Shown here: positions 3,065 to 28,256 of the stretch, one piece after another
Layout: each line of letters starts with the position of its first letter
Position numbering within the stretch: position 1 is the stretch's first letter
Assembly (NCBI GenBank): GCA_963734495.1
Contig: CAVTHK010000013.1
Span: forward strand, 513,171 to 577,170
Direction of reading: 5' to 3'
DNA: 64,000 bases
Source of the DNA: an uncultured Spirochaetota bacterium
Lineage (GTDB): Bacteria; Spirochaetota; Spirochaetia; SZUA-6; CAVTHK01
The notes under the pieces: generated by a model
The model's database searches: none
What the model saw: the letters and a program-made list of their open reading frames with translations, nothing else
What the model was told of the DNA's origin: nothing
Position numbers and translations under genes: made by a program

Positions 3065-5761
3065 CGAAATTCGATGGCGAGGGGCCGCCCGGGCTCGACC
3101 ACGACGGGCGAGCCGAAGAGGAGCCGGTCGGCCTCGAGCGAATGCGCGACCGGCGCGCCCCCGAGCGCGACGCGTACGCTGTGCCTGCCCCGCAGCCGGT
3201 CGACGCTCAAGGCGCGCAGCGTGAGCGGGGCGCCGAGGACCGAAAGCCGGGCGCTCCGCGAGTCGCACTCGAAGACGCCCCAGGAGCTGCCGACGCTCCA
3301 GAACGTCGAGAACGCACCGGGCGCGAGCGGCGCGAATCCGATCGCGCCTTCGACCATGTCGAACGAGAAGCCGGAGTACGCGAGGAGCAGCGCGTACGAA
3401 GCCATCGAGCGCGCGTAGTTGCTGCCGCACTCGATCTCGTTCCAGGGGTTGCGCTTCGCCCCGTCGTAGCGGCCGCGGACCGCCCGGACGATCGCCAGAC
3501 CTTCTTCGATCAACCCTTCCTGGATCATGTGGCAGGCGGCCTGGTACTCGAAGCCCGCCATCATCTCCTCGGCGTACGGCACGGGGATCGTGGGCTTCGC
3601 GCGCCGCGGGAAGCTGCAGATGATGGCGCCGCCCTCGTCGTCGACCGCGAAGACCCGGCACGGGTTCGCCAGGTCGCGGACGCTCGCCTTGTAGTTGTGG
3701 CGGTAGATCGCCTGCGAGCGCCTTGCGCGTCTGCGCGGCGTCGAAGATGCGGCCGAGCCCGACGATGTTCGCGTGCCACTGGGCGAGCACCTGGTCGATG
3801 ATGCAGCCTTCGGCCACCTGGTACTTCATCTCGGCGTGCTCCTCGTCCCAGTAGGCGTCGCGGGCCTCGCCGATGCGCTCGTCGGCCCCGGGGTAGCTCT
3901 CGAGGATCGAGCGGTCCTTGAGATCGATCTTCTGGAAGTAGTACTCGCCGTTGAACAGGTGCTCGTCCACCCAGCGGCGCCCGCGCTCGAACAGCGCGAG
4001 GTACTCGGCCGAGGCATCGCGGTCGCCCAGGTGCTCCGCCATCTCGCGAGCCCGCCTTGAGCGCCGCGAGGTAGAAACCGGTGAGCCACGAGTTGGGCCC
4101 GAAGAGCTCCATGTCGAGCGTGTGGTGCTGGCGGCCTTCGAGCACGCCGTCGCGGTCGCGGTCCCAGCGGTCGGCGTTCGCTTCGGACCAGGCGAAGGCG
4201 AGCGCGCTCTTGATCTCGCGCCAGTGCGAGGCGAGCCAGGCCGTGTCGCCCGAGATCTTCCATTCGCGGTACGCCTTGATCACGGCGCCGAACTGGCCGT
4301 CCGCGCAGGCGCGGAACGTCGCGCGCGCGCGGCCGAGCGGGAGCTGCAGCCGGAACGTCATGTCGCCCGCGGCGCCGAGGTTGTACCGCAGCTCCGCGTC
4401 GCGCATCGAGCGCTCGAGGGCGGGGAACAGGAACGGCAGCGCGTAGGCGTAGTTCCAGACGTGCTGGCAGCTGCCCTTCGCAGCAGCCCTCGCGGGCGTG
4501 GCAGCCTTCCCAACCGTAGAACGTGCCGTCCTCGAGGCGCAGCACCGTCGGCGACTTGAGGATCGAGATGTTGGCGCTCACCGCGTCGAGGACCGCCTCG
4601 GGAACGGTGCTCCCGAAGAGGGCATCCGTGAACGCCCGGGTCTCGCGGGCCAGCCGCTCCCAGTTGCCCAGACGATAGAGGGCGCTCTCCGTGGAGTCGC
4701 GGAAGAGCGTGGCGTAGTAGTTCTTCCAGGTCCTGGGCTTGCAGGCGGCGCCGCCGCCGGCCCCGGCGCCCGCGGCACCAGCGCCCCCCGCCCCGCCGGC
4801 CCCGGCGCCTGCGCCCCCCGCCCCGCCGCCGCAGCCGCACGCCTCGGGCCTCCAGTAGTTGGTGCAGTTGGGAAAGGACCAGCTGATCACGAAGCGCGCG
4901 GCTACGGACGTCGCCCGGCTCCACGTCGAGGTGCGCCGCGAGCAGCGCAATGTCTTCGCCGCTGTACTGCTTGCGGCCGCCGGAGGCGGCCGCGTAGCGC
5001 CGGTTGGCGAACGGCCCCGCCTTTGTCAGGTCCTGCCAGTAGACGGCGAGGTTGTCGAACCAGCGCCCGCGGTACAGGTACTCCTGGTAGCTCACGGCGG
5101 CGGCGTCGGTGGCGATCGTGAGGTCGCCGAACGCGGGGTCGCCCGCGTCGACGCTCTCGGAATCCAGGCGCACGAGCGAGACACCGCCGTCGCGGGCGAA
5201 GCGGTTGCGGGCACCCGAGGCGAGCGGGTTGCGCACGACGAGCGCGAGCGTGTAGGCGAGCGGCTCCGCCGTCGTGTTGCGCACCTCGATCTCGAAGAAC
5301 GCCGCGGGGATGCCGGAGTCCCGGTCGTTGTGGGGGATGAGGGGATTGAAGGCGGTCATGCGCACTTCGCCCGGGAAGCCGGCGGGAGCGTCGTTGTCCG
5401 CGAAGCTGAGCGACGCCAGCGGGTACGTGCCTGCAAACTCGACTTCCCGGAAGTGAGGCAGCCCCGCGAGGGAGTCGCGCGGCGCGCCGAAGCCGAACCC
5501 CCGGTAATTCTCCCCGGCAAGCTCGCCGGAGTACGGGGCGGCGAGATCGCCGTGGAGGACGCGGGCGGCGACGACGCGGCCCTCCCGCTCCGCCCTGATC
5601 GCGAAGTGGCTCGGCCCGTTGCGGCTGCCCTTGTTCGGCCGGTTGTAGATCTCCCAGTCGATCAGGGCGCCGTTGCCCGCGAGCCCGATCGAGCCGGTGC
5701 CCAGGCCGCCCAGCGGGAACGAGATCTCCCGCGCCGCGGCGCCGCGATGCACGAAACCCAT
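3061..5761 (-). CDS. GH116 glycoside hydrolase, copy 2 (several frameshifts)
   Basis: Pieces in ORFs 4358-5761, 3826-4950, 3561-4406, 413-4042 (N-part) and 3061-3582: [57 protein letters not shown]. Confidence 0.85.
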
Positions 5762-18591: not shown

Positions 18592-18607
18592 GCGGGGGAG
18601 GAAGGAA

Positions 18608-19075
18608 ATGAAGAGGAGCGTCGTGCTTGTGTCTCTGCTTGCGTTTACGCTGATCGCGGCCGCGGCGGCGACGGCTCAGACGCGGATGATCGGACCCAGG
18701 GCGGACTGCGATGCGATCGCGAAGATCATGGAGGACTATGCGCTCGCCGGCACCCGCAGCGACCCGGAGCTGCGCCTTTCGCTCTGGGATCGCGAGGGGA
18801 TCGCGTACAAGGGGGACCTGAGCGTGTTCGACATGGCGGGGGTGGAGAAGAGGGTCCGCGCCGGCTTCGCAGCCACCACCATGAACATGTGGATCAAGAT
18901 CGAGGAGATCTTCGTGTCCGGCGACCTCGCCTACGCGCTCGGGCCGTACGGGAGCAGGCAGGGGCCCAAGGCCGGCGGCCCCATGATCGTCGTCGACGGC
19001 AGGTACCTGACGGTCCTCAGGCGGCAGCCCGACGGGTCCTGGAAGATCTACCGCGACTTTTCGGCCACCAAGTAG
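18608..19075 (+). CDS. Secreted NTF2-like (DUF4440/SnoaL) protein, paralog of the upstream gene
   Basis: Signal peptide; SGDLAYALG...GPKAGGP...DGRYLTVLRRQPDGSWKIYRD. Confidence 0.85.
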   Translation: MKRSVVLVSLLAFTLIAAAAATAQTRMIGPRADCDAIAKIMEDYALAGTRSDPELRLSLWDREGIAYKGDLSVFDMAGVEKRVRAGFAATTMNMWIKIEEIFVSGDLAYALGPYGSRQGPKAGGPMIVVDGRYLTVLRRQPDGSWKIYRDFSATK

Positions 19076-19096
19076 GAAAGCCCGGCACGCCGGGCA

Positions 19097-22000
19097 TCAG
19101 CGGGCGCGGGGCGGCCCGGCAGCAGGGCGGGGCCGCCTCGCTCCGCCGCCGGCGCCGCCGCGCAGGGCGTAGGCGATCGCGTTGTCGAGCGTCATCGTGA
19201 GCCCGCGGGCCCACTCGGCGGCGAAGCGGGCCCGGTAGCGGGCGGAGGCGGCCGCCGTCACGGCTCCGCCTCGGCGCGCGGCCTCGGGGCCGAGCGCCGC
19301 TTCGCCGAGGGCCGACGACGCCGCCATCAGGCGCGCGGCGCGCGCGTCGCGGCCGGCCCCGCGCGCGGCGAGCGCGAGCCGGCCGACCATGTAGACCGAG
19401 CTTGCCCGGTCGCCGAGGAGCGAGAAGAGGGAGAGCGCCTCCTTCATGTTCGCCTCGGCGCGCCGGAAGTCGCGGCCCCGGAGCGCCGCGGACCCCAGCC
19501 CTTCGAGCGTCCAGGCGACCATCCACGGGTCCTCGACCTCGCGGAACCCCGCGAGCGCCGCCTCATAGACGGGGCGCGCACCCCGGTGATCGCCTGTCTC
19601 GCGCAGGAGATCGCCGAGCCCGTTGAGCGCATGCGCCTCGCCCCACCTGAAGCCCGCCTCGCGCGAGATCCGCGCCGCCTCCTCGAGCTCGGCGCGCGGC
19701 GAGCGGCCTTCGAAGCGGCCTCCCGTGGTGGCGTACGCCGAGATGAGCGCGCGCGCGAGGCACACGGGATCGCCGACCTCCCGCGCGACCGCCACCGCCT
19801 GCTTGCCGTGCGCGGTGCCCGCGGTGCGCTCGCCGAGCCAGCGCTCGACGACTCCGAGGTAGGCCAGCGCCGACGCCTCGACGCTTCGCTGCGAGAGCTC
19901 GCGCGCCTCGGCGAGGCTCCGTTCGTAGAGGGCCCGCGCCCGGGTCCAGTCGCCCTGGACAAAGGCGATCCAGCCGAGAGCGTCGAGCGCCCGCGCGTGC
20001 GCGCGCGACGGAGCTGCCGGCTGCTCCAGCGACCGCTCGAGGATGCCGCGCCCTTCGCTGAACCGGCCGCCGCGATACCAGTACCACCTGAGCGCGGCCG
20101 CGAGTCTCAGCGCATCTTCTCCGCGCCCCGCTGCCAGGAACCGCTCCACCGCGGCCCGCAGGTTGGCGTTCTCGACCTCGAGGCGCGCGAGCCACACGGC
20201 ATGCTCGGGCCCGTCCAGCCCCGCCTCGCCGGTCTCGGCCAGGCGCAGGTAGTACGCGGCGTGCCGGTCGGCGACGGCCGCCGCTTCGCCGCTTTCCCGC
20301 AGCCGCAGGCGGGCATATTCCCCGATCGTCTCGAGCATTCGCAGGCGGCTTTCGCCCGATGCCTCCTCGCGCCGAAGGAGGTTCTTCTCGGCGAGGGAGA
20401 CGAGCCCCTCCAGGACGTCGGCGCCGCCCGCGTCGCCGCACACCTCTTCGGCGGCCCGCGGCGCGAAGCCGCCCGCGAACACGGCGAGACGGGCGAACAG
20501 CCGCTTCTCGCTCCCGTCGAGGAGGTCGTAGCTCCACTCGATGGCGCCGCGCAGCGTGCGCTGCCGCGCCGGCAGATCGGGGGGCCCCGCGCCGAGCAGC
20601 CGGAGGCGATCGGAAAGGCGGCTCGCCAGGTCCTGGGGCGAGAGGACCCGCAGCCGCGAAGCTGCCAGCTCGATCGCGAGGGGAAGGCCGTCGAGCCCGG
20701 CGCAGATCTCCTCCACCGCCGCCGCGTTGGAGTCGGTCAGCGTGAAGTCGGGCCTCGCCGTCACGGCCCGTTCCACCAGCAGCCGCACGGCCGCATAGCC
20801 GGCCAGGTGGTCCGCTGAGCGCGACGCCGCCGGATCGGGGACGCGCAGCGGGGGCACGGGGTACTCCCTCGCGTCCCGGATGTGCAGCGACTCGCGGCTG
20901 GTCACCAGCGCCTCGAGGCCGGGGCAGGCAGCCGCGAGCGCGGCGACCCGGCCGGCAGCCTCTGCCACGTGCTCGAAGTTGTCGAGCACCAGCAGCACCT
21001 TCCTGCGGCCGAGGGTCGCGGCCAGCAGGTCGAAGAGCGGCACGGCCTGGCCGCGCGATTCCCTCACGTCCAGCGTCGCGGCGATCGCGGGCACCACCTG
21101 GGCGGGCTCCTCGAGCGCGGACAGGTCGACGAAGAAGACGCCGTCGGGAAACCGGCCGGCGAGGTCCTCGGCCGCCTTCACCGCCAGCGCCGTCTTGCCC
21201 GTGCCGCCGGGGCCGGTCAGCGTCAGCACGCGCCCGTCCCCGCGGCCGATGAGGTCGAGGACCTCCGCGAGCTCCTTCTCCCTGCCCACGAGAGCCGCGG
21301 GCCCCGCGGGAAGGGTGGCGGGGCGCGGCGACGGCTCGCGCGCCGCCGCCGGCCGCGGCTCGCGCGCGGGCGCCGGCCCTCCGCCGGCCGCGCGACGCCG
21401 CTGGATCGCCTCGCGCAGCGCCTCGGTCCGCTCGTCAGGCTGCTCGCCGAGCTCCTTCGCGAGGACCGCGCGGCACACCTCGTACTGCCGAAGCGCCGCC
21501 GCTCTCTGTCCCGTGCCGCAGTAGAGGCGCATCAGGAGCCGGTGGGCCGCTTCGTCGATCGGGTCGAGGGCGAGCGCGCTGCGCGCGTACTCGACGGCGG
21601 CCTCAGGCCTCCCGCTCCCCTCCTGCAGGCGGACGAGCCGCTCGAGCACTGACGCGTACCGCTTGCGCAGCGTCTCCCGTTCGAAGAGCTGCCAGTCCTC
21701 GAAGGCCGGGCTGTCCCTGAGGAAGAAGCCTGAAAGAAGGTCACCGCGGTACAGCCGTGCCGCCTCCGTGAGCGCGGGCTCGTCGCCCGCGGCCAGCGTG
21801 CGGAAGCGCCGCACGTCGACGGCGAGCCCGCGCCGGTCCGGCAGGGCCACACCGCCGCGGTCGATCTCGAGCCAGCCCTCGCCGATGGCGCGCAGCAGGA
21901 ACGACAGCGTGTGGCGGAAGTCCGCGCCGGAACGCTCGCGCCCCAGCCCGGGGTAGAGCAGCTCCGCCAGCGCGTCGCGGTCGCGGGGCTCGCCGGTCAC

Positions 22001-22108
22001 GGCGAGGTATGCGAGCAGCGCGAGCACCTTGCGCCTCGGCATGCGGATCGAGGCGCCGTCCCGCTCGAACCTCGGCGGCCCGAGCAGCTGCAGCGAGAGC
22101 GTGGCCAC
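19097..22108 (-). CDS. AfsR/SARP-like regulator (wHTH-BTAD-NB-ARC-TPR), copy 2
   Basis: Same motifs as copy 1: RRKVLALLAYLA, DPIDEAAHRLLMRLY, GPGGTGKT, LVLDNFEHV, LDGLPLAIELAA, TPRs. Confidence 0.92.
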   Translation of the reverse strand: MATLSLQLLGPPRFERDGASIRMPRRKVLALLAYLAVTGEPRDRDALAELLYPGLGRERSGADFRHTLSFLLRAIGEGWLEIDRGGVALPDRRGLAVDVRRFRTLAAGDEPALTEAARLYRGDLLSGFFLRDSPAFEDWQLFERETLRKRYASVLERLVRLQEGSGRPEAAVEYARSALALDPIDEAAHRLLMRLYCGTGQRAAALRQYEVCRAVLAKELGEQPDERTEALREAIQRRRAAGGGPAPAREPRPAAAREPSPRPATLPAGPAALVGREKELAEVLDLIGRGDGRVLTLTGPGGTGKTALAVKAAEDLAGRFPDGVFFVDLSALEEPAQVVPAIAATLDVRESRGQAVPLFDLLAATLGRRKVLLVLDNFEHVAEAAGRVAALAAACPGLEALVTSRESLHIRDAREYPVPPLRVPDPAASRSADHLAGYAAVRLLVERAVTARPDFTLTDSNAAAVEEICAGLDGLPLAIELAASRLRVLSPQDLASRLSDRLRLLGAGPPDLPARQRTLRGAIEWSYDLLDGSEKRLFARLAVFAGGFAPRAAEEVCGDAGGADVLEGLVSLAEKNLLRREEASGESRLRMLETIGEYARLRLRESGEAAAVADRHAAYYLRLAETGEAGLDGPEHAVWLARLEVENANLRAAVERFLAAGRGEDALRLAAALRWYWYRGGRFSEGRGILERSLEQPAAPSRAHARALDALGWIAFVQGDWTRARALYERSLAEARELSQRSVEASALAYLGVVERWLGERTAGTAHGKQAVAVAREVGDPVCLARALISAYATTGGRFEGRSPRAELEEAARISREAGFRWGEAHALNGLGDLLRETGDHRGARPVYEAALAGFREVEDPWMVAWTLEGLGSAALRGRDFRRAEANMKEALSLFSLLGDRASSVYMVGRLALAARGAGRDARAARLMAASSALGEAALGPEAARRGGAVTAAASARYRARFAAEWARGLTMTLDNAIAYALRGGAGGGARRPRPAAGPPRAR

Positions 22109-22189
22109 GCGGCTCGCCTCCGGGCCGCCGCGCGGGGCCGGGGTGCGCGGCGGCGGCCTTCAATATGATGCCCCTTCATTCTACGCGAA

Positions 22190-22252
22190 AACGCGGTGAA
22201 ACGCATTCCGAAACGCGGCGGCAACGCCGGCGCAACGGCGGACGCCTATCCT
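22190..22252 (+). promoter_or_regulatory. Phased ACG-repeat promoter (site 3)
   Basis: AACG repeats with ACG at 22191, 22201, 22213, 22224, 22235, then 9 bp, then TATCCT (22247-22252). Confidence 0.65.
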
Positions 22253-22291
22253 TGGGTCGCCGGTGGGGACACCGGATGCGAGGAGGTGCAG

Positions 22292-23077
22292 ATGCGCGGC
22301 CAGGTTGTCGAGTTGCGCGTGAGCACCGTGCAAGGAGGCGCAGCGGCGGCGCCGCCGTCCACGAGGCGGCTCGGCGATGGGGCGCTGCTCGCGGCGAAGG
22401 TCGGGGTCCTCTGCTGCGGCGCGCTCGCGCTGCTCGCCGCCCACCTGAGCCCGCCGCTGGTGAGGCGCGTCCACAACCACGCGCGCGGCGTCTCTATGCG
22501 GCTTCCGGCGGGGTGGACCGGCTACGATCGGTTTGAGCAGGGCGTGGTGGCTTTCAAGCGCGACGGCCGATTCAATGCGTCGGTCACGGTGTGGCGTTTT
22601 TCGTGGTGTGAGTTCGACAGCGCCCGCGAGACGCCCGGAACGCCGGTCCCCGCACGTCAGCTGCCGACGGATCTCGTACAAGCCGCGGCCGAGGTGGCGG
22701 CTTGCCTGGGGTTCCCAGACGCAACGGGGAGGGCGCACATGGAAGGCGCCGTCGTCGGCGGGAGGCCTGCCCTGGTGCTTGTCGCGCCCCGCTACTCGAC
22801 CGAGCCATGGCGCGCGATCGCGGTGGCTGCCGGCGAAGACCTGCTCTTTCTCGACCTGCGTGCGGCGAGCGAGGCGGATCTCCGGGCGGTCTGGCGTTGT
22901 TGGAAAGCGATGATACGGTCGGTTCGGGTGACGAACCGGCCGCGGCCAATGGTCGAGCGTTTCGGCTGCGAAGACGGCTGCGGCCTTGAATATGTTGCTC
23001 CTTCATTCTACGCGAAAGTGCCGCGCAGCGCATTCCGAAACGCCTGCGGCAACGCTGGCGCAACGGCGGACGCCTAG
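22292..23077 (+). CDS. Hypothetical membrane-anchored protein, PsbP/Mog1p-like, paralog 1
   Basis: ATG after GAGGAGGT; RLGDGALLAAK + hydrophobic helix, MRLPAGW, GRPALVL, VAAGEDLLFL, SEADLRAVWRCWKAMIRSVRVT. Confidence 0.7.
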   Translation: MRGQVVELRVSTVQGGAAAAPPSTRRLGDGALLAAKVGVLCCGALALLAAHLSPPLVRRVHNHARGVSMRLPAGWTGYDRFEQGVVAFKRDGRFNASVTVWRFSWCEFDSARETPGTPVPARQLPTDLVQAAAEVAACLGFPDATGRAHMEGAVVGGRPALVLVAPRYSTEPWRAIAVAAGEDLLFLDLRAASEADLRAVWRCWKAMIRSVRVTNRPRPMVERFGCEDGCGLEYVAPSFYAKVPRSAFRNACGNAGATADA

Positions 23078-23080
23078 GCT
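23028..23080 (+). promoter_or_regulatory. Phased ACG-repeat promoter (site 4)
   Basis: GCG 23028, ACG 23040, 23052, 23063, then 9 bp, then TAGGCT (23075-23080). Confidence 0.65.
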
Positions 23081-23115
23081 TGGGTCGCCGGTGGGGACGC
23101 CGGAGGAGGCGCAGC

Positions 23116-23820
23116 GTGGGGCTCAAGGCGATGACAGTCGGACTGCAGGTCTGTTCCTTGCGCCTGCAACCGGAGGTGGAGCCGAAGCCGGGCACGAGCC
23201 GACTCGGTGACGGCGCCCTGCTGGCGGCCAAGGCGGCCGCGCTCACGGCCGCGGCGCTCGCGCTGCTCGCGTCATACCTGGGGCTCCCGCTGCCCCGCGT
23301 CCTGCGCAATCAGACCCTCGGCCTGTCCATCAGCTGCCCACCGGGGTGGGAAGACTGCCGGCTCCCCAAAGGATTGGCCATGGGAGCCTTCAAGAGCGAC
23401 GGCCGCCTGTCCGCGTGCGTGACGCTGTGGCGCTTTTCGTGGCCCGAGATAGGCGCCGTCGCGTTCGAGTCCGGAAGGAGTCTCTCCGCGCACGGAGTGC
23501 AGCCGGACCTTTTCGCCGCACTGAGCGAGCAAGCGGCCTGGCTGGGGTTCGGGGACTGCACGGGCCCGGTCGACACCATGACACTCGACGGCAGGCCGGC
23601 CCTCATGCTCACTGCGCAGGCGCCCTCCGGGAAGTCGCGGAGTGCGCTTGTGGTCGCGTTGGGCGAAGATCTCGTGTCGCTCCACCTCTTCGCGTCGAGC
23701 GAGGCTGATCTCCGCGCGGTGTGGCCGCTGTGGAAGTCGATGATCCGCTCGGTCCGTGTGACGCGACGGTCGCGGCCTTCCGCCAAGGGTTCCGACGACG
23801 GCAAGCGCGCAGGGTGGTGA
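23116..23820 (+). CDS. Hypothetical membrane-anchored protein, paralog 2
   Basis: GTG after GGAGGAGG; RLGDGALLAAK, SCPPGW, GRPALML, VALGEDLV, SEADLRAVWPLWKSMIRSVRVT. Confidence 0.72.
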   Translation: MGLKAMTVGLQVCSLRLQPEVEPKPGTSRLGDGALLAAKAAALTAAALALLASYLGLPLPRVLRNQTLGLSISCPPGWEDCRLPKGLAMGAFKSDGRLSACVTLWRFSWPEIGAVAFESGRSLSAHGVQPDLFAALSEQAAWLGFGDCTGPVDTMTLDGRPALMLTAQAPSGKSRSALVVALGEDLVSLHLFASSEADLRAVWPLWKSMIRSVRVTRRSRPSAKGSDDGKRAGW

Positions 23821-23869
23821 TCTTCCGGCGGTTTGACGGCCTTCTTCTTTCGTCTGTAGGTTTTCGGGC

Positions 23870-24763
23870 ATGACGGCACTCGGGCCCGCTGTGGAGCGCC
23901 GCCCGGACATGTCGGGGCGGGTGTGCCTCGTCACAGGAGGCACCTCCGGCGTCGGACGCGCGATGGCGGGCGGGCTCTCGAAGCTCGGCGCCCGCGTCGT
24001 CATCCTCGCGCGGGACCGGGAGCGCGGCCGCGCCGCCGCCGTGGAAATGACCGCGTCGTCCGGCCACGCGGTCGAGGTGGTCGTCGGCGACCTCGCGGAC
24101 CTGCGCTCCATCGGCCGCGCCGCCGCGGATTTCGGCGCGCGGTGGGACCGCCTCGACGTCCTCGCGCACGCCGCGGGCATCCTCTGCTGGAACCGGCAGA
24201 TGAGCGCCGACGGCTACGAGCTCACGTTCGCGGTCAACGTTCTCGGGCCGGCCCTCCTGACCCGGCTGATGCTGCCCCTGCTCGAGCGCAGCGCGCCCGC
24301 GCGGATCACCGCGGCGTGCGGCGGCCTGGCGACGCTCGCGCACGCCAGGCTCGATCTCGACGACCTCCCCTACCGCGCGGCGCGGTTCGCCCCGCTCTCG
24401 ACGGCGCTGCAGGCGATGCTCGCCCGCGTCCTCTACTGCGCGGAGCTCGCGCGGAAGCTCCAGGGACGCGGCATCGCGGTCAACGCGTTCTACCCGGGGC
24501 TCGTGCGCTCGCGGCTCGATCGCGGGCTGCCGTGGCCCCTGCGCGTCCCCGTGCGGCTCGTCCAGCCCTTTCTCAAGGCGGGCTCCGCTTCGGCGGTGCG
24601 AGCCGCCGCGGACCCCTCCCTCGCCGCCGTCACAGGCGCTTTCCTGGCGGGGCGGCGCGTGCTCGAGCTCCGCAGCCGCCGTGTGACGCCGGAGGATTCG
24701 CAGCGCCTCTGGTCGCTGATCGAGAGGCTGCTCGACGAGCGGATGACGCCCGGAACCGCGTGA
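23870..24763 (+). CDS. SDR-family (retinol dehydrogenase/WWOX-like) protein with a degenerate active site
   Basis: LVTGGTSGVG, DLADLRSI, DGYELTFAVNVLGPALLT, PGLVRS; no YxxxK motif. Confidence 0.85.
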   Translation: MTALGPAVERRPDMSGRVCLVTGGTSGVGRAMAGGLSKLGARVVILARDRERGRAAAVEMTASSGHAVEVVVGDLADLRSIGRAAADFGARWDRLDVLAHAAGILCWNRQMSADGYELTFAVNVLGPALLTRLMLPLLERSAPARITAACGGLATLAHARLDLDDLPYRAARFAPLSTALQAMLARVLYCAELARKLQGRGIAVNAFYPGLVRSRLDRGLPWPLRVPVRLVQPFLKAGSASAVRAAADPSLAAVTGAFLAGRRVLELRSRRVTPEDSQRLWSLIERLLDERMTPGTA

Positions 24764-24817
24764 AACGCTTTCTGTAACGTCTACGGACACGATCCCGGGA
24801 CGGCGCGCGCCTAACCT
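24764..24817 (+). promoter_or_regulatory. Phased ACG-repeat promoter (site 5)
   Basis: ACG at 24765, 24777, 24789, 24800, then 9 bp, then TAACCT (24812-24817). Confidence 0.65.
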
Positions 24818-24843
24818 GTCAGCGACAGTGCGAGGAGGCGTGT

Positions 24844-25536
24844 ATGCCGTTCGGACGAGGACTGGTCCCGGCTGCGGAAGCCTGCTCCCTGCGGCGGGAT
24901 GACCCGACGCCGCCCGCGCCACGCGCGGGGCGGCTCAGCGATGGCGCTCTGCTGGGCGCAAAGGCGGGCGCGTTGTGCCTCGCCTGCCTCGTGCTGCTGC
25001 CCGGGCAGCTCAACCCGGACCGGGCCGGCATCCTGTGCAGCCAGGAGGCAGGGCTCTCGATGCGGGTGCCGCGCGGATGGCACCGCTTCGCGCTGCCTCA
25101 CGCGCTGGCAGCCGTGAAACCCGACGGCGCCGGCGGCCCGCGCGCGTCCGTGCTGCTCTGGCGCCCGCCGTACGCCGAGCCAGGCGCTGCCGACGGCAGC
25201 GAGGACGCGGTGGTCTCCGCAGGGTGGCCGAGAGCCGATCCGGCGGCCACGCTGGCTGAGGCGGCTGACTGCCTCGGGCTGGACTGGTCCGGGCAGGCGC
25301 GGCTGGAGACCGACACCATCGCCGACAGGCCGGCCCTGGTGCTCGCCGCACCGCTCCGCGCCAGCCGGTGCTGGCGCGCCCTCGCTGTTGCCGCGGGCGA
25401 GGATCTGCTGTTTGTCGAGCTCGACGTGTCGAGCGAACAAGACCTTCGTGCTGTCTGGCGTCAGTGGAAAGCGATGCTCCGCTCTGTGCGGATCACGGGG
25501 TCCGACCGCCCGAGTGTGGCAGGGGGCGCCGACTGA
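24844..25536 (+). CDS. Hypothetical membrane-anchored protein, paralog 3
   Basis: ATG after GAGGAGG; RLSDGALLGAK, MRVPRGW, DRPALVL, VAAGEDLLFV, SEQDLRAVWRQWKAMLRSVRIT. Confidence 0.72.
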   Translation: MPFGRGLVPAAEACSLRRDDPTPPAPRAGRLSDGALLGAKAGALCLACLVLLPGQLNPDRAGILCSQEAGLSMRVPRGWHRFALPHALAAVKPDGAGGPRASVLLWRPPYAEPGAADGSEDAVVSAGWPRADPAATLAEAADCLGLDWSGQARLETDTIADRPALVLAAPLRASRCWRALAVAAGEDLLFVELDVSSEQDLRAVWRQWKAMLRSVRITGSDRPSVAGGAD

Positions 25537-25764
25537 CGACTCAGTCCGCCGCCATCGGTTTCCCGATGTGAGCGGACTTCCAGCCTTTGGAGGCGTGTCG
25601 CCTCTTCTTGACGCACCGTCATATCTCCGAAACGTGTTGGTGACGCCGGCTGACTACAGCTTGTCGGGACACTCAGGCAACGATTCGGGCCTGGGGCGAC
25701 ACGGAGCGTCGGGCTTCCACGCGCTCTTGCTTCTCGATCGTGGCCGAGGAACCCGGGATACCTC

Positions 25765-25798
25765 TTGCATCTGATACTGAACATATGTATAGTATCAG
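25765..25798 (+). promoter_or_regulatory. Leaderless promoter with a 28-bp palindrome / SOS-box-like operator
   Basis: TTGCAT (25765-25770), 17 bp, TATAGT (25788-25793), ATG at 25800. Palindrome CTGATACTGAACATATGTATAGTATCAG (25771-25798) contains GAAC-N4-GTAT. Confidence 0.7.
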
Positions 25799-25799
25799 T

Positions 25800-27065
25800 A
25801 TGACCCCTAAAGAGGAACTCGGCGAGGAGATCGCCAGCCTGTCGGCGCACCTCGATGCGGCCGCTCATCGCCTGCTGGAGTGCATCAGGCAGTTCGACGA
25901 CTCCGGCGGCTGGTGCGACCAGGGCGCCCTTTCCTGCGCGCACTGGCTGGCCTGGCGGCTCGGATGGGATGGGGCCACGGCGCGGGAAAAGGTGCGGGTA
26001 GCGCGCGCTCTGGGCAAGCTGCCCGCGATCGACGAGGCCTTCCGCTCGGCCACCCTTTCCTACGCCAAGGTCCGAGCCCTCACGCGAGTGGCAACCCCGC
26101 AGAACGAGGGCAAGCTGTTGGAGCTGGCGCTGGTGGCAACCGGGGCGCAGCTCGAGCGATTGTGCCGGGGCTATCGAGCGGCTGTGGACCCGGAGACTGC
26201 GCCGCTGCCGGAGGAGCGGTCCGTATATCGGCGATTGCTGCCGGGGGGAATGGTCAAGCTGGAGCTGGTGCTGGAGCCCGACGAGGCGGACCTGGTGATG
26301 CGCGCCATCGAGCGAGCCCGGGAGGTGCACGCCGAGCAGGCCGAGGTGCCCGAGGGACCGGCCCCTGGTGGCGCTTCCGCGGAAGCGCCGTGGCCATCCC
26401 GGGCGGATGGCGCGGTCGAAGTCGCCGAGTCGTTCCTGGCCGGCCATCAGGTGACGGGAACCGGAGGGGAGCGCTTCCAGGTCATGATTCATCTGGAGCA
26501 GGAGGTGCTCGGTGCCGACGGCGAGTGGTCGGCGACGCTGGAGGACGGAACCCGTGTTTCCCCGGAAGCGTTTCGACGAGTCGCTTGCGATTGCGGTCTG
26601 GTGGCGGTGGGTGGGGAGGGGGAGAGTCTGAACATCGGCCGCCGCACCCGCAGCATTCCCCCCGCCCTCCGCCGGGCCTTGATGCTGAGGGACCGCGGCT
26701 GCGCCTTTCCCGGGTGCACCCACACCAGGTTCCTGCACGGCCACCACGTCAAGCACTGGCTGCATGGGGGAGAGACCAGCCTCGAGAATACCCTGCTGGC
26801 CTGCCCTCGCCACCATAGACTGCTCCACGAGGGAGGCTGGAGCATCAGCCGAGGCGCGGATGGCGCCTGGATCTTCCACTCGCCCTCCGGCATACCGCTG
26901 GCGCAGAATCCGCACTCGCAGCCGGTGGACGACGCCCTCGCCTGGATGCGCGATTGGGCTGATGAGCGCGACCTTGACCTTGGTCCTGAAGTCAACTTCC
27001 CGGCGTGGGATGGGACGAGACCGAGCTACGACCTGGCGGTGAGCGGCTTGCTCGAGCCGAAGTAA
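25800..27065 (+). CDS. DUF222-domain HNH endonuclease (13E12-repeat-like)
   Basis: W...GALSCAHWLAWR...AREKVRVARAL..LP....AF....LSYAKVRALTR N-terminus; RRVACD; RDRGCAFPGC...HHVKHWLHGGETSLEN...CPRHHRLLH. Confidence 0.92.
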   Translation: MTPKEELGEEIASLSAHLDAAAHRLLECIRQFDDSGGWCDQGALSCAHWLAWRLGWDGATAREKVRVARALGKLPAIDEAFRSATLSYAKVRALTRVATPQNEGKLLELALVATGAQLERLCRGYRAAVDPETAPLPEERSVYRRLLPGGMVKLELVLEPDEADLVMRAIERAREVHAEQAEVPEGPAPGGASAEAPWPSRADGAVEVAESFLAGHQVTGTGGERFQVMIHLEQEVLGADGEWSATLEDGTRVSPEAFRRVACDCGLVAVGGEGESLNIGRRTRSIPPALRRALMLRDRGCAFPGCTHTRFLHGHHVKHWLHGGETSLENTLLACPRHHRLLHEGGWSISRGADGAWIFHSPSGIPLAQNPHSQPVDDALAWMRDWADERDLDLGPEVNFPAWDGTRPSYDLAVSGLLEPK

Positions 27066-27117
27066 GCCGACCTGCCAGCGGCGCCGCACCGCTTGGCCGG
27101 AGCGAAAGAGCAGTGAC

Positions 27118-28256
27118 TCAGTCCGCCGCCATCGGAAGGTCCACCGGCTTTCCGCCCAGCTCCGAAGACTTGCGGATCGCGAGGATGATCTCCTGGTCGA
27201 GCCTTCCCTGGGCCGGCGCCGTAGGTGGGCTCGCCGCCGCTGCGCACCGCGTCCACGAGGCTCATGATGCAGCCGGCCACGCCGATCTCGTCGTCGTGCC
27301 ACTGGGGGTTCGAGCCCTTCTCCTCGGTGCAGAAGGGGTTCTTCCACTCGAAGAGCTTCCCGCCCGCCGTGTGGCGCGGATCGAGACCAGCGCGCCGCCG
27401 TCGCACGCGCTCCCAGACGCGATCGAGCGTGATGAACTGCGGCTGCTCGCCGTCGGGGGTGAGGATCGAGAGCTTCTCCTCGAAGTCGAGCCCGTAAGCC
27501 GACGCTGATCCCCATGCCCTTTTCCGCGAGGAAGCGGCTGCTGCGCCACCAACGGAGCGCTGAGTCGTAGCCCACGCTGGTCCAGTGGAAGATGCCGAGG
27601 CGGCCGCCTTCGAACTCGACCATCCCGTGCTCCTGCGTCTCCTTGCGCGGCCCGTTCGTCCCGGCGATGAGCGACCAGTGCGGGGCGAGGTCGTAGCCGT
27701 GCACCGACCCGACGACCCGCACGGGCTTCGCGTCGAAGCCGAGGTAGCTGCGCATCACGCTCACGCCGTGGTAGCCGTGGCCCGAGAAGTCGTTGAACGA
27801 GGAGTAGACGCGGCCAAAGACGCCCGCGCGTATCAGCGCCAGCTTGATCTGCTCGAGCGGCCTGCGGTGGAACTGCTCCGAGACTTCGATCTTGAGCTTC
27901 TGCCTGCGGGCCGACGCGATGATGGCGTCGGCCTCGGCGAGCTTCGGCGCGATCGGCGTCTCGAGCAGCACGTTCAGGCCGTGCTCGACCGCGAGCAGGC
28001 CGACCTGCCCGTTGGAGGCGTGGGTGACCGCGACCACGCCGATCGCGGGCGAAGTCTCGCGCACCAGGCGCGAGAGGTCGGTGTACCACGGGATGCCGAG
28101 CTTCTCGCCCACCCTGCGGGCAGGCTCGGGGCTGCGGTTCCAGACGGAGACCAGCTCCACGTGCTTCGAGAGGCCCCGGAGCAGCGGAGCGTACATGTAG
28201 GCGGAGCGCTTGCCCGCGCCCACGAGCGCGACGCGCACTCGCTGGTTCTGGCTCAT
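27118..28256 (-). CDS. Gfo/Idh/MocA-family oxidoreductase (frameshifted in the 3' part)
   Basis: VRVALVGAGKRS, VWNRS, NVLLETPIA; C-terminus IRKSSELGGKPVDLPMAAD*. Confidence 0.8.

Follow-up and report, generated by a model that had tools for sequence, protein, structure and literature searches.

The 64-kb stretch of genomic DNA analyzed here (hereafter the window) carries a DUF222-HNH gene of the known REP13E12 kind, found in an unusual host lineage and with an unusually clean insertion junction. The gene is the sole recognizable one in a segment of 1,556 bp that is bracketed by two exact copies of the 21-mer GACTCAGTCCGCCGCCATCGG, spaced 1577 bp from start to start, and this 21-mer repeats the end of the neighboring Gfo/Idh/MocA oxidoreductase gene. 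We see about an even chance that a REP13E12-type selfish nuclease gene was captured here once, along with DNA from its flanks, when a staggered break opened the junction of two genes lying tail to tail. A 21-bp target duplication is not supported as a property of the element. The locus is composed of the following features, given in window coordinates.

24844 to 25536, plus strand: left neighbor open reading frame (ORF) of 230 amino acids (aa), coding only probable
25538 to 25558, no strand: left 21-bp repeat, which duplicates the end of the Gfo gene as an orphan and begins 1 nt past the stop of the left ORF
25559 to 25753, plus strand: orphan 195-bp segment, whose first 20 nt pair imperfectly, as a hairpin, with the last part of the left repeat (25543-25558 with 25563-25578)
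25765 to 25799, plus strand: near-consensus promoter and predicted operator, with TTGCAT at 25765-25770, a 17-nt spacer, TATAGT at 25788-25793, and 6 nt to the ATG
25800 to 27065, plus strand: DUF222 and HNH nuclease gene encoding 421 aa (ATG at 25800), with a predicted ParB/KorB-like N-terminal fold and a Cys-rich HNH C-terminal part
27066 to 27114, plus strand: end of the insert on the 3' side, where ~14 nt next to the stop resemble copy C2 (12/14) and the remainder is orphan
27115 to 27135, no strand: right 21-bp repeat, the functional last five Gfo codons and stop (27118-27120, minus strand)
27118 to 28256, minus strand: Gfo/Idh/MocA oxidoreductase gene (Pfam PF01408), the right neighbor, with an intact ortholog of 419 aa in a genome of the same genus

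The junction was explored by comparing the host genome (G000; 5.38 Mb, 18 contigs, 68% GC) with this same-genus genome (G001). With up to two mismatches allowed, GACTCAGTCCGCCGCCATCGG matches the window at its two places only, and none of 100 dinucleotide shuffles gave two or more matches. The reverse complement of the 21-mer reads P-M-A-A-D-stop, the C terminus of the minus-strand Gfo gene, and continues the minus-strand frame "...GRLDQEIILAIRKSSELGGKPVDLPMAAD", which aligns with the C terminus "...LPMAGD" of the G001 ortholog. When one repeat and the interior are removed in a reconstruction, the stop codon of the left ORF (25534-25536) and that of the Gfo gene (25541-25543) are left with 4 bp between them. 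The end of the Gfo gene in G001 has an identical 4-bp tail-to-tail spacing, but the left neighbor there is a different gene. An earlier sequence-only reading of this DNA had reported the two exact repeats, their identity with the last Gfo codons and stop, an insertion that spares this gene, and a plausible empty site. The first three observations hold, the identity with the Gfo end being confirmed by the reading frame and by the PMAGD-stop of the ortholog. The empty site is borne out as far as the spacing of the stops goes; its actual empty form was not found, and G001 carries a different 1.1-kb segment at this place. Small parts of the stretch (shares of 0.09 and 0.06) were present in only two public sequencing runs, and the contigs of these runs contained no joint skipping 25559-27135, which is not evidence of absence.

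The content of the bracketed segment likewise agrees with what had been read from the letters: the DUF222-HNH gene is the only recognizable gene, there are no terminal inverted repeats at 25538-27135, and no recombinase was found in the segment. Pfam searches on six alternative ORFs overlapping 25368-27042, in and beside the segment, gave no other family, and an Rfam search of 25300-27300 gave no match. Of the small hairpins that had been placed at both ends, the left one stands, with 13 of 16 positions complementary and a DNA fold z score of −2.1 (6 of 200 shuffles were equally good); about 20 inverted repeats comparable to it occur in the whole window. The right one does not stand, since its z score of 0.02 is not better than that of shuffles.

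The gene is not confined to this locus. Four dispersed DUF222-HNH copies of ~1.3 to 1.4 kb, with 80 to 93% nucleotide identity, are present in the host genome, namely the window copy on contig C13 and the following three.

C2:221512-222824: copy C2, 93% nucleotide identity to the window copy
C7:419945-421253: copy C7, 89% nucleotide identity to the window copy
C9, two pieces: copy C9, split, 80 to 86% nucleotide identity to the window copy

Two of these sites are empty in G001. At the C7 site, G001 has 44 bp (C160:7810-7855) versus 1,359 bp in G000, and at the C2 site it has 147 bp (C99:13094-13242) versus 1,616 bp; at both sites, the orthology of the flanking genes reaches to the gene ends. 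Convergent genes enclose the C7 copy, and G001 has a GC-rich hairpin in its place; the C2 copy is enclosed by divergent genes. The sequence-only reading had taken the DUF222-HNH gene for a mobile unit, which the four copies and the two empty sites bear out; its proposal to look for empty sites in relatives gave a positive result at C7 and C2 and a negative one at the window site. The idea that C9 is an old copy common to both genomes was rejected, because the G001 site has other DNA without an HNH homolog. The paralogs in G000 resemble one another more closely (89 to 93%) than do orthologous flanks of G000 and G001 (74 to 85%), a pattern suggesting that the paralogs either spread after the two genomes split or were homogenized by gene conversion. 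HNH copies of its own are present in G001 as well, many of them at contig ends.

Of 92 genomes searched in the order, 20 have relatives of the gene (E ≤1e-30), often in multiple copies, while a 401-genome sample of the phylum contained DUF222 in no other genome. A metagenome scan with the HNH protein gave 26 loci, mostly on short contigs with the gene at the end. In one further genome (G088:C7:33-2638, locus L110), two full HNH copies stand in tandem at the contig start, ~40 bp apart. In genus g7 (G007 and G032; loci L129, L133, L142, and L145) the DUF222-HNH genes are longer, at 500 to 800 aa, and form larger repeated units with neighboring small genes (antitoxin-like in L129), with several copies within 15 kb.

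The window copy is uninterrupted. In the C9 copy, the gene is split by 3.4 kb of inserted DNA (L017:3313-6739, corresponding to G000:C9 ~166612-170038) encoding three tandem tyrosine recombinases of 331, 313, and 409 aa, all of them matching Phage_integrase; no serine integrase was seen. This insert resembles a "recombinase in trio" element with the HNH gene as its target. A second split copy was seen in another genome of the order (L047:2616-4625, on G085 contig C4), where a 2-kb insert encoding RVT_1 (E of 3.5e-34) is probably a group II intron.

Comparison of the copies also shows how far the conserved unit reaches. Similarity extends from ~25754, about 10 nt before the −35 box, to the stop codon, and a further ~14 nt are common to C2. 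The repeats are separated from this conserved unit (~25754 to 27080) by 195 bp on the left and by ~35 to 49 bp on the right. The homology of these outer segments with the flanks of C2 and C7 is not significant (p of 0.16, 0.60, and 0.40), and they have no counterpart elsewhere in G000 or among the 92 searched genomes of the order, where the 195-bp segment gave only chance-level matches of 22 to 30 nt.

The sequence-only reading had suggested that other DUF222-HNH copies be collected and their flanks compared. We searched for the longest exact direct repeat between the region from −600 to +30 of the gene start and the region from −30 to +500 of the gene end in 42 near-full copies, mainly from one order (3 from G000, 5 from G085, 5 from G083, 3 from G087, 2 from G088, 3 from G073, 1 from G081, 7 from G007, 7 from G032, 4 from other loci in metagenome-assembled genomes [MAGs], and 2 from the metagenome contigs). 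From the 85 tblastn groups, partial copies (query start beyond residue 50 or end before residue 425), duplicate places, copies with a flank of <400 nt upstream or <300 nt downstream, the tandem pair of L110, and L053, which has its gene at the contig start, were left out. Only the window copy (1 of 42) has a flanking direct repeat above the null obtained from cross-locus pairs, which reaches 17 nt; its repeat is 21 nt long, and those of the others are 8 to 12 nt. A wider search that allowed mismatches and reached ±1900 nt gave scores of 28 to 310 for the four g7 loci L129, L133, L142, and L145. These were rejected as target duplications, since they are paralogous neighboring genes and turn up between different loci as well (333 and 69 in cross-locus pairs).

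The five G085 copies are 91 to 97% identical to one another, and none of them has a flanking repeat. Subsets of them share nested extra upstream flank (~75, 135, and 150 bp) and ~85 bp downstream that the copies of other genomes lack, which indicates that copying carries variable flanks. A 21-bp target duplication had been proposed as a feature of the element, but 41 of 42 copies are without a repeat and the repeats of the window copy do not abut the conserved unit. A lack of defined ends in other copies had been named as a refuting observation; the ends do vary across the copies, which weakens a transposon-like reading. Flanking duplications are therefore not general in this lineage, and this speaks against a transposon-like mechanism in which the ends are fixed.

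In the protein, DUF222 (PF02720) was detected with an E value of 4.5e-18 and 66.1 bits against a cutoff of 24.4, over residues 29 to 318 of the 441-aa ORF, and HNH (PF01844) with an E value of 1.5e-5 and 25.5 bits against a cutoff of 21.4. The HNH residues H315, H316, N330, H338, H339, and H343 are conserved in alignments of 14 and of 63 homologs; in the larger one H315, H316, and H319 are invariant and N330, H338, H339, and H343 nearly so. A structure model built from the 63-homolog alignment reached a predicted local distance difference test (pLDDT) score of 87.3 and replaced a 14-sequence model with a score of 50.4. In this model residues ~14 to 131 superpose on the DNA-binding domains of ParB (6s6h_B, Z of 7.4), Spo0J (1vz0_A, Z of 6.6, root mean square deviation of 2.7 over 91 residues), and KorB (Z of 5.4 to 5.9), and Foldseek gave Myxococcus xanthus ParB and Noc with a probability of 0.99 and an E value of 0.41. 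Residues 280 to 369 match McrA (Z of 7.3), IscB (Z of 6.9), and TagI (Z of 6.5). The top structural ranks of each domain are filled by one family.

The model thus predicts that the N terminus folds like the ParB/KorB DNA-binding domain and is a DNA-binding module fused to an HNH nuclease; a sequence-specific module of this kind joined to a nuclease would fit a site-directed cutter. The likeness to ParB, KorB, and Noc is limited to this module, whereas there is no sequence-level match to solved structures, the scores are middling, and the CTPase N-terminal domain of these proteins is unmatched. At the thresholds used, the protein had no match among PDB sequences, NCBIfam, PADLOC, or PHROGs, and a plasmid collection gave only four weak actinobacterial matches to it. 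The DUF222-HNH family itself is very large, with 27,300 cluster representatives at an E value of ≤0.001. The sequence-only reading had held that the way in which it spreads is unresolved; in agreement with this, the papers on DUF222 and REP13E12 that we searched describe neither a spreading mechanism nor a function.

The upstream region of the gene points to its regulation. A 28-bp palindrome (25771-25798) overlaps the promoter spacer and the −10 box, and its core, ACATATGTAT, matches a palindrome in the lexA2 and dnaE2-like promoters of G000. A strict consensus promoter scan, which follows a stricter rule than manual reading, did not list the promoter at 25765-25793. The layout is common to all intact copies: a CTTGC-type −35 box, 17 nt, a TATAGT-type −10 box, and 6 to 8 nt to the ATG, a distance so short that the transcript is probably leaderless. 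The exact sequence ATACATATGTAT occurs at four sites in 5.4 Mb, against 0.007 expected, and these are the lexA2 promoter (C6), the HNH copies C7 and C9, and a position upstream of an unassigned 210-aa gene (C8). Variants with one or two mismatches lie at the window copy, at copy C2, and in the TTGAAT-17-TATCAT promoter of a second DNA polymerase III alpha gene (C6), although the relaxed pattern with up to two mismatches is unspecific (19 matches versus 10.7 expected). The gene called lexA2 here is the second lexA of the genome and encodes 208 aa with LexA_DNA_bind and Peptidase_S24 domains.

The operator differs between hosts. In G001 the lexA2 promoter has GTGAACATTTGTATGT at the corresponding position. 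Among the HNH homologs on other contigs, the same promoter position is occupied by CTGT-N8-ACAG on one metagenome contig and by CTGAACATATGTTTAG on Myxococcales-labelled and related contigs, and both types of palindrome resemble the LexA boxes of other lineages. Because the palindrome core is common to the lexA2 and dnaE2-like promoters and varies with the host, these comparisons point to SOS control of the DUF222-HNH gene through an operator that changes with the host. Since the LexA2-type palindrome overlaps its promoter, the gene is probably silent until DNA damage occurs. In three genomes with HNH copies (G085, G088, and G073, 60 to 84% complete) only a LexA1-type gene, and no lexA2, was found.

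For M. tuberculosis, PMC3381160 reports six LexA chromatin immunoprecipitation peaks at 13E12 genes and a family that is induced by DNA damage. SOS-type control seems to be a conserved trait of the DUF222-HNH family, and the operators compared here suggest that it extends beyond Actinobacteria and tracks the host.

Away from the HNH genes, two of the loci named above carry a CATACATATGTATG-type operator. At G000:C6:54600-61400, lexA2 is followed by a weak RecA-like ORF and the second DNA polymerase III alpha gene; these genes form a probable SOS mutagenesis cassette, in an arrangement that we take to resemble lexA-imuA-imuB-dnaE2. At G000:C8:44646-45330 the operator stands before the 210-aa gene, which has no Pfam family. 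Within the orphan 195-bp segment of the window, a terminator-like hairpin (25590-25612; GGAGGCG-tgt-CGCCTC, then TTCTT) could insulate the HNH promoter from read-through out of the left ORF.

Taken with the junction, these properties allow a history of the window copy to be proposed. A staggered double-strand break would have occurred where the left ORF and the Gfo gene meet tail to tail, and a linear piece of 1,556 bp would have been captured there once. This piece would have consisted of the conserved promoter-plus-gene unit of 1.33 kb together with the 195 bp and the ~35 to 49 bp, both brought along from its former location. By the simplest route, filling in of the 21-nt overhangs, followed by end joining, would have duplicated the 21 bp and thereby preserved the Gfo reading frame. 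The 21-bp repeat would then be the footprint of a single repair event. End joining is possible in this host, since Ku is encoded at G000:C2:75904-76446. As for what made the break, the palindrome GACTGA-cgac-TCAGTC spans both stop codons and has one repeat boundary in its loop, which is a suggestive hint only. The family as a whole would spread with variable ends and mostly without flanking repeats, in a manner that fits a damage-induced selfish nuclease gene. The clean junction with its reconstructable empty site offers a concrete substrate for a cleavage test.

Several observations weigh against this history. A stagger of 21 nt is unusual for a random break, and a dedicated mechanism or a recombination core could also explain why both copies are exact and the gene end is preserved. 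The empty form was not found, so that the order of events at 25538-27135 is deduced from one state only. The 42 copies surveyed come mainly from one order, old copies may have lost their repeats, and gene conversion may make old copies look young. PMC13061034 describes gene conversion as frequent among the REP13E12 loci of M. tuberculosis. Finally, the N-terminal domain scores (Z of 5.4 to 7.4; Foldseek E of 0.41) may reflect a common helical arrangement.

An unlikely, though not negligible, alternative is a true target-site duplication, in which a dimer of the ParB-like/HNH protein nicks the two strands ~21 bp (two helical turns) apart at a gene-end hairpin, gap repair after insertion of the cassette duplicates the 21 bp, and older copies have since lost their repeats. 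It would account for the exact repeat and for an insertion that spares the gene, and the position of one repeat boundary in the loop of the palindrome across both stop codons fits it as well. The C7 copy likewise sits where G001 has its hairpin between convergent genes, and the protein combines a predicted DNA-binding module with a nuclease. Against it, however, stand the 41 copies without a repeat above chance, among them G085 copies 95 to 97% identical to a paralog, the orphan DNA on both sides between the repeats and the conserved unit, and the variable element ends. We consider it rather unlikely that this extends to a general mode of SOS-triggered cut-and-insert elements, whose dimers would nick opposite strands two helical turns apart at hairpin-forming gene ends, whose cassettes would be joined in along with any flank they bring, and whose repair would duplicate ~19 to 21 bp and so let the neighboring gene survive. 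If it did, the 21-bp repeat would be a fresh footprint of the 13E12 spreading mechanism, and most copies would have lost theirs.

Homology-facilitated illegitimate recombination is also rather unlikely to have produced the junction. Here, DNA from a relative with the cassette just downstream of its own Gfo gene would have recombined through homology within Gfo at the right end and illegitimately at the left, immediately beyond the Gfo end of the recipient, and the last 21 bp of the Gfo gene of the recipient would remain as the duplicate. The cassette does lie at the edge of a variable block of 8.5 kb (~18592-27114), and homology between G000 and G001 picks up again within the right repeat, at 27124. 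The gene is accompanied by orphan DNA, and no special enzyme activity would be needed. However, a search of 41 genomes with the locus revealed no donor arrangement, no relative of the left ORF was found among the metagenome contigs, and none of the orphan segment in the 92 genomes. Moreover, the two repeat copies are identical at 21 of 21 positions, so that import would need a very close donor.

Integrase-mediated islands typically duplicate the 3' end of a gene and leave the gene whole, and the duplicated end of the Gfo gene is of this form. The 21 bp could accordingly be an att core common to a small circle and the Gfo 3' end, used by an integrase acting in trans, and the genome does encode tyrosine recombinases, among them the trio that splits the C9 copy. 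We nevertheless hold site-specific integration to be very unlikely, because no integrase was found within the segment or next to it, the window has the 21-mer at this locus only (up to two mismatches), and both this sequence and any other flanking repeat are lacking at the other copies. That the assembler misplaced the cassette or one repeat is hardly credible: the assembly has many single-base indel errors and the gene is multicopy, but no paralog is closer than 93% identity, a repeat of just 21 bp would not lead a long-contig assembly astray, and a 189-nt contig from another public run, possibly the source sample, equals 25450-25638 without a difference, so that an artefact confined to this record does not explain the left junction.

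The closest known system is REP13E12 of M. tuberculosis. Both have the Pfam domains DUF222 and HNH, mostly fused there, and both are dispersed multicopy units of ~1.3 to 1.4 kb. The SOS-type operator predicted here from the sequence would correspond to the LexA binding and DNA damage induction of the mycobacterial genes given in PMC3381160. Copies of both also seem to be targeted by other mobile elements: three tyrosine recombinase genes interrupt the C9 copy, and the M. tuberculosis repeat holds a prophage attachment site, according to PMC3381160 and PMC13061034. PMC13061034 and PMC13157036 further describe the DUF222-HNH genes of M. tuberculosis as hotspots of gene conversion and inversion. 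The present system differs in its host order, whose public records are labelled as Spirochaetes or Spirochaetota MAGs and not as Actinobacteria, in its operator, which is the lexA2 sequence of this host and not the mycobacterial SOS box, and in the clean 21-bp duplication that flanks the window copy.

Two other kinds of element are similar in part. With DDE insertion sequences the gene shares the format of a short multicopy unit and, in the window copy, a flanking direct repeat. Unlike them, it has no terminal inverted repeats and no transposase family was found here; its duplication length is not constant, with a repeat at 1 of 42 copies, and neither are its ends. Free-standing homing endonuclease genes of phages, such as seg and mob of T4 and the I-HmuI-type HNH genes, spread by intronless homing. 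Like these, the element is a lone nuclease gene between conserved genes, without terminal inverted repeats or transposase, with filled and empty sites among relatives (here at C7 and C2) and a variable extent of cotransferred flank. Homing, however, takes place between alleles of one locus, which does not explain four unrelated chromosomal sites, and a 21-bp duplication is not expected from it. The predicted SOS control is a further difference.

The neighboring genes were examined together with the quality of the assembly. The Gfo gene in G000 is readable only with frame changes at ~27495, 27406, 27375, and 27218. Single-base insertions relative to G001 are isolated and scattered over all aligned genes of the window (e.g., at 3716, 4045, 8896, 58003, and 59675), and for this reason the frame changes are probably errors of a long-read-type assembly and not the decay of a pseudogene. 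With indel errors apparently this frequent, the frameshifts in the Gfo gene and in HNH copies C7 and C9 may be artefacts.

On the other side, the left ORF (24844-25536) gave no family and no relatives, metagenome contigs included, and its codon-position GC is weakly gene-like. It belongs to the 8.5-kb block that in G001 is replaced by 1.1 kb with one unrelated gene of 351 aa. No direct repeat brackets this block. In G000 it contains a second DUF4440 gene, a regulator of 1003 aa with BTAD, AAA, and TPR domains, three unassigned ORFs, a short-chain dehydrogenase/reductase (SDR) gene, the left ORF, and the HNH gene, and between 19000 and 25400 its GC content is 72 to 79%, versus ~68% in the genome.

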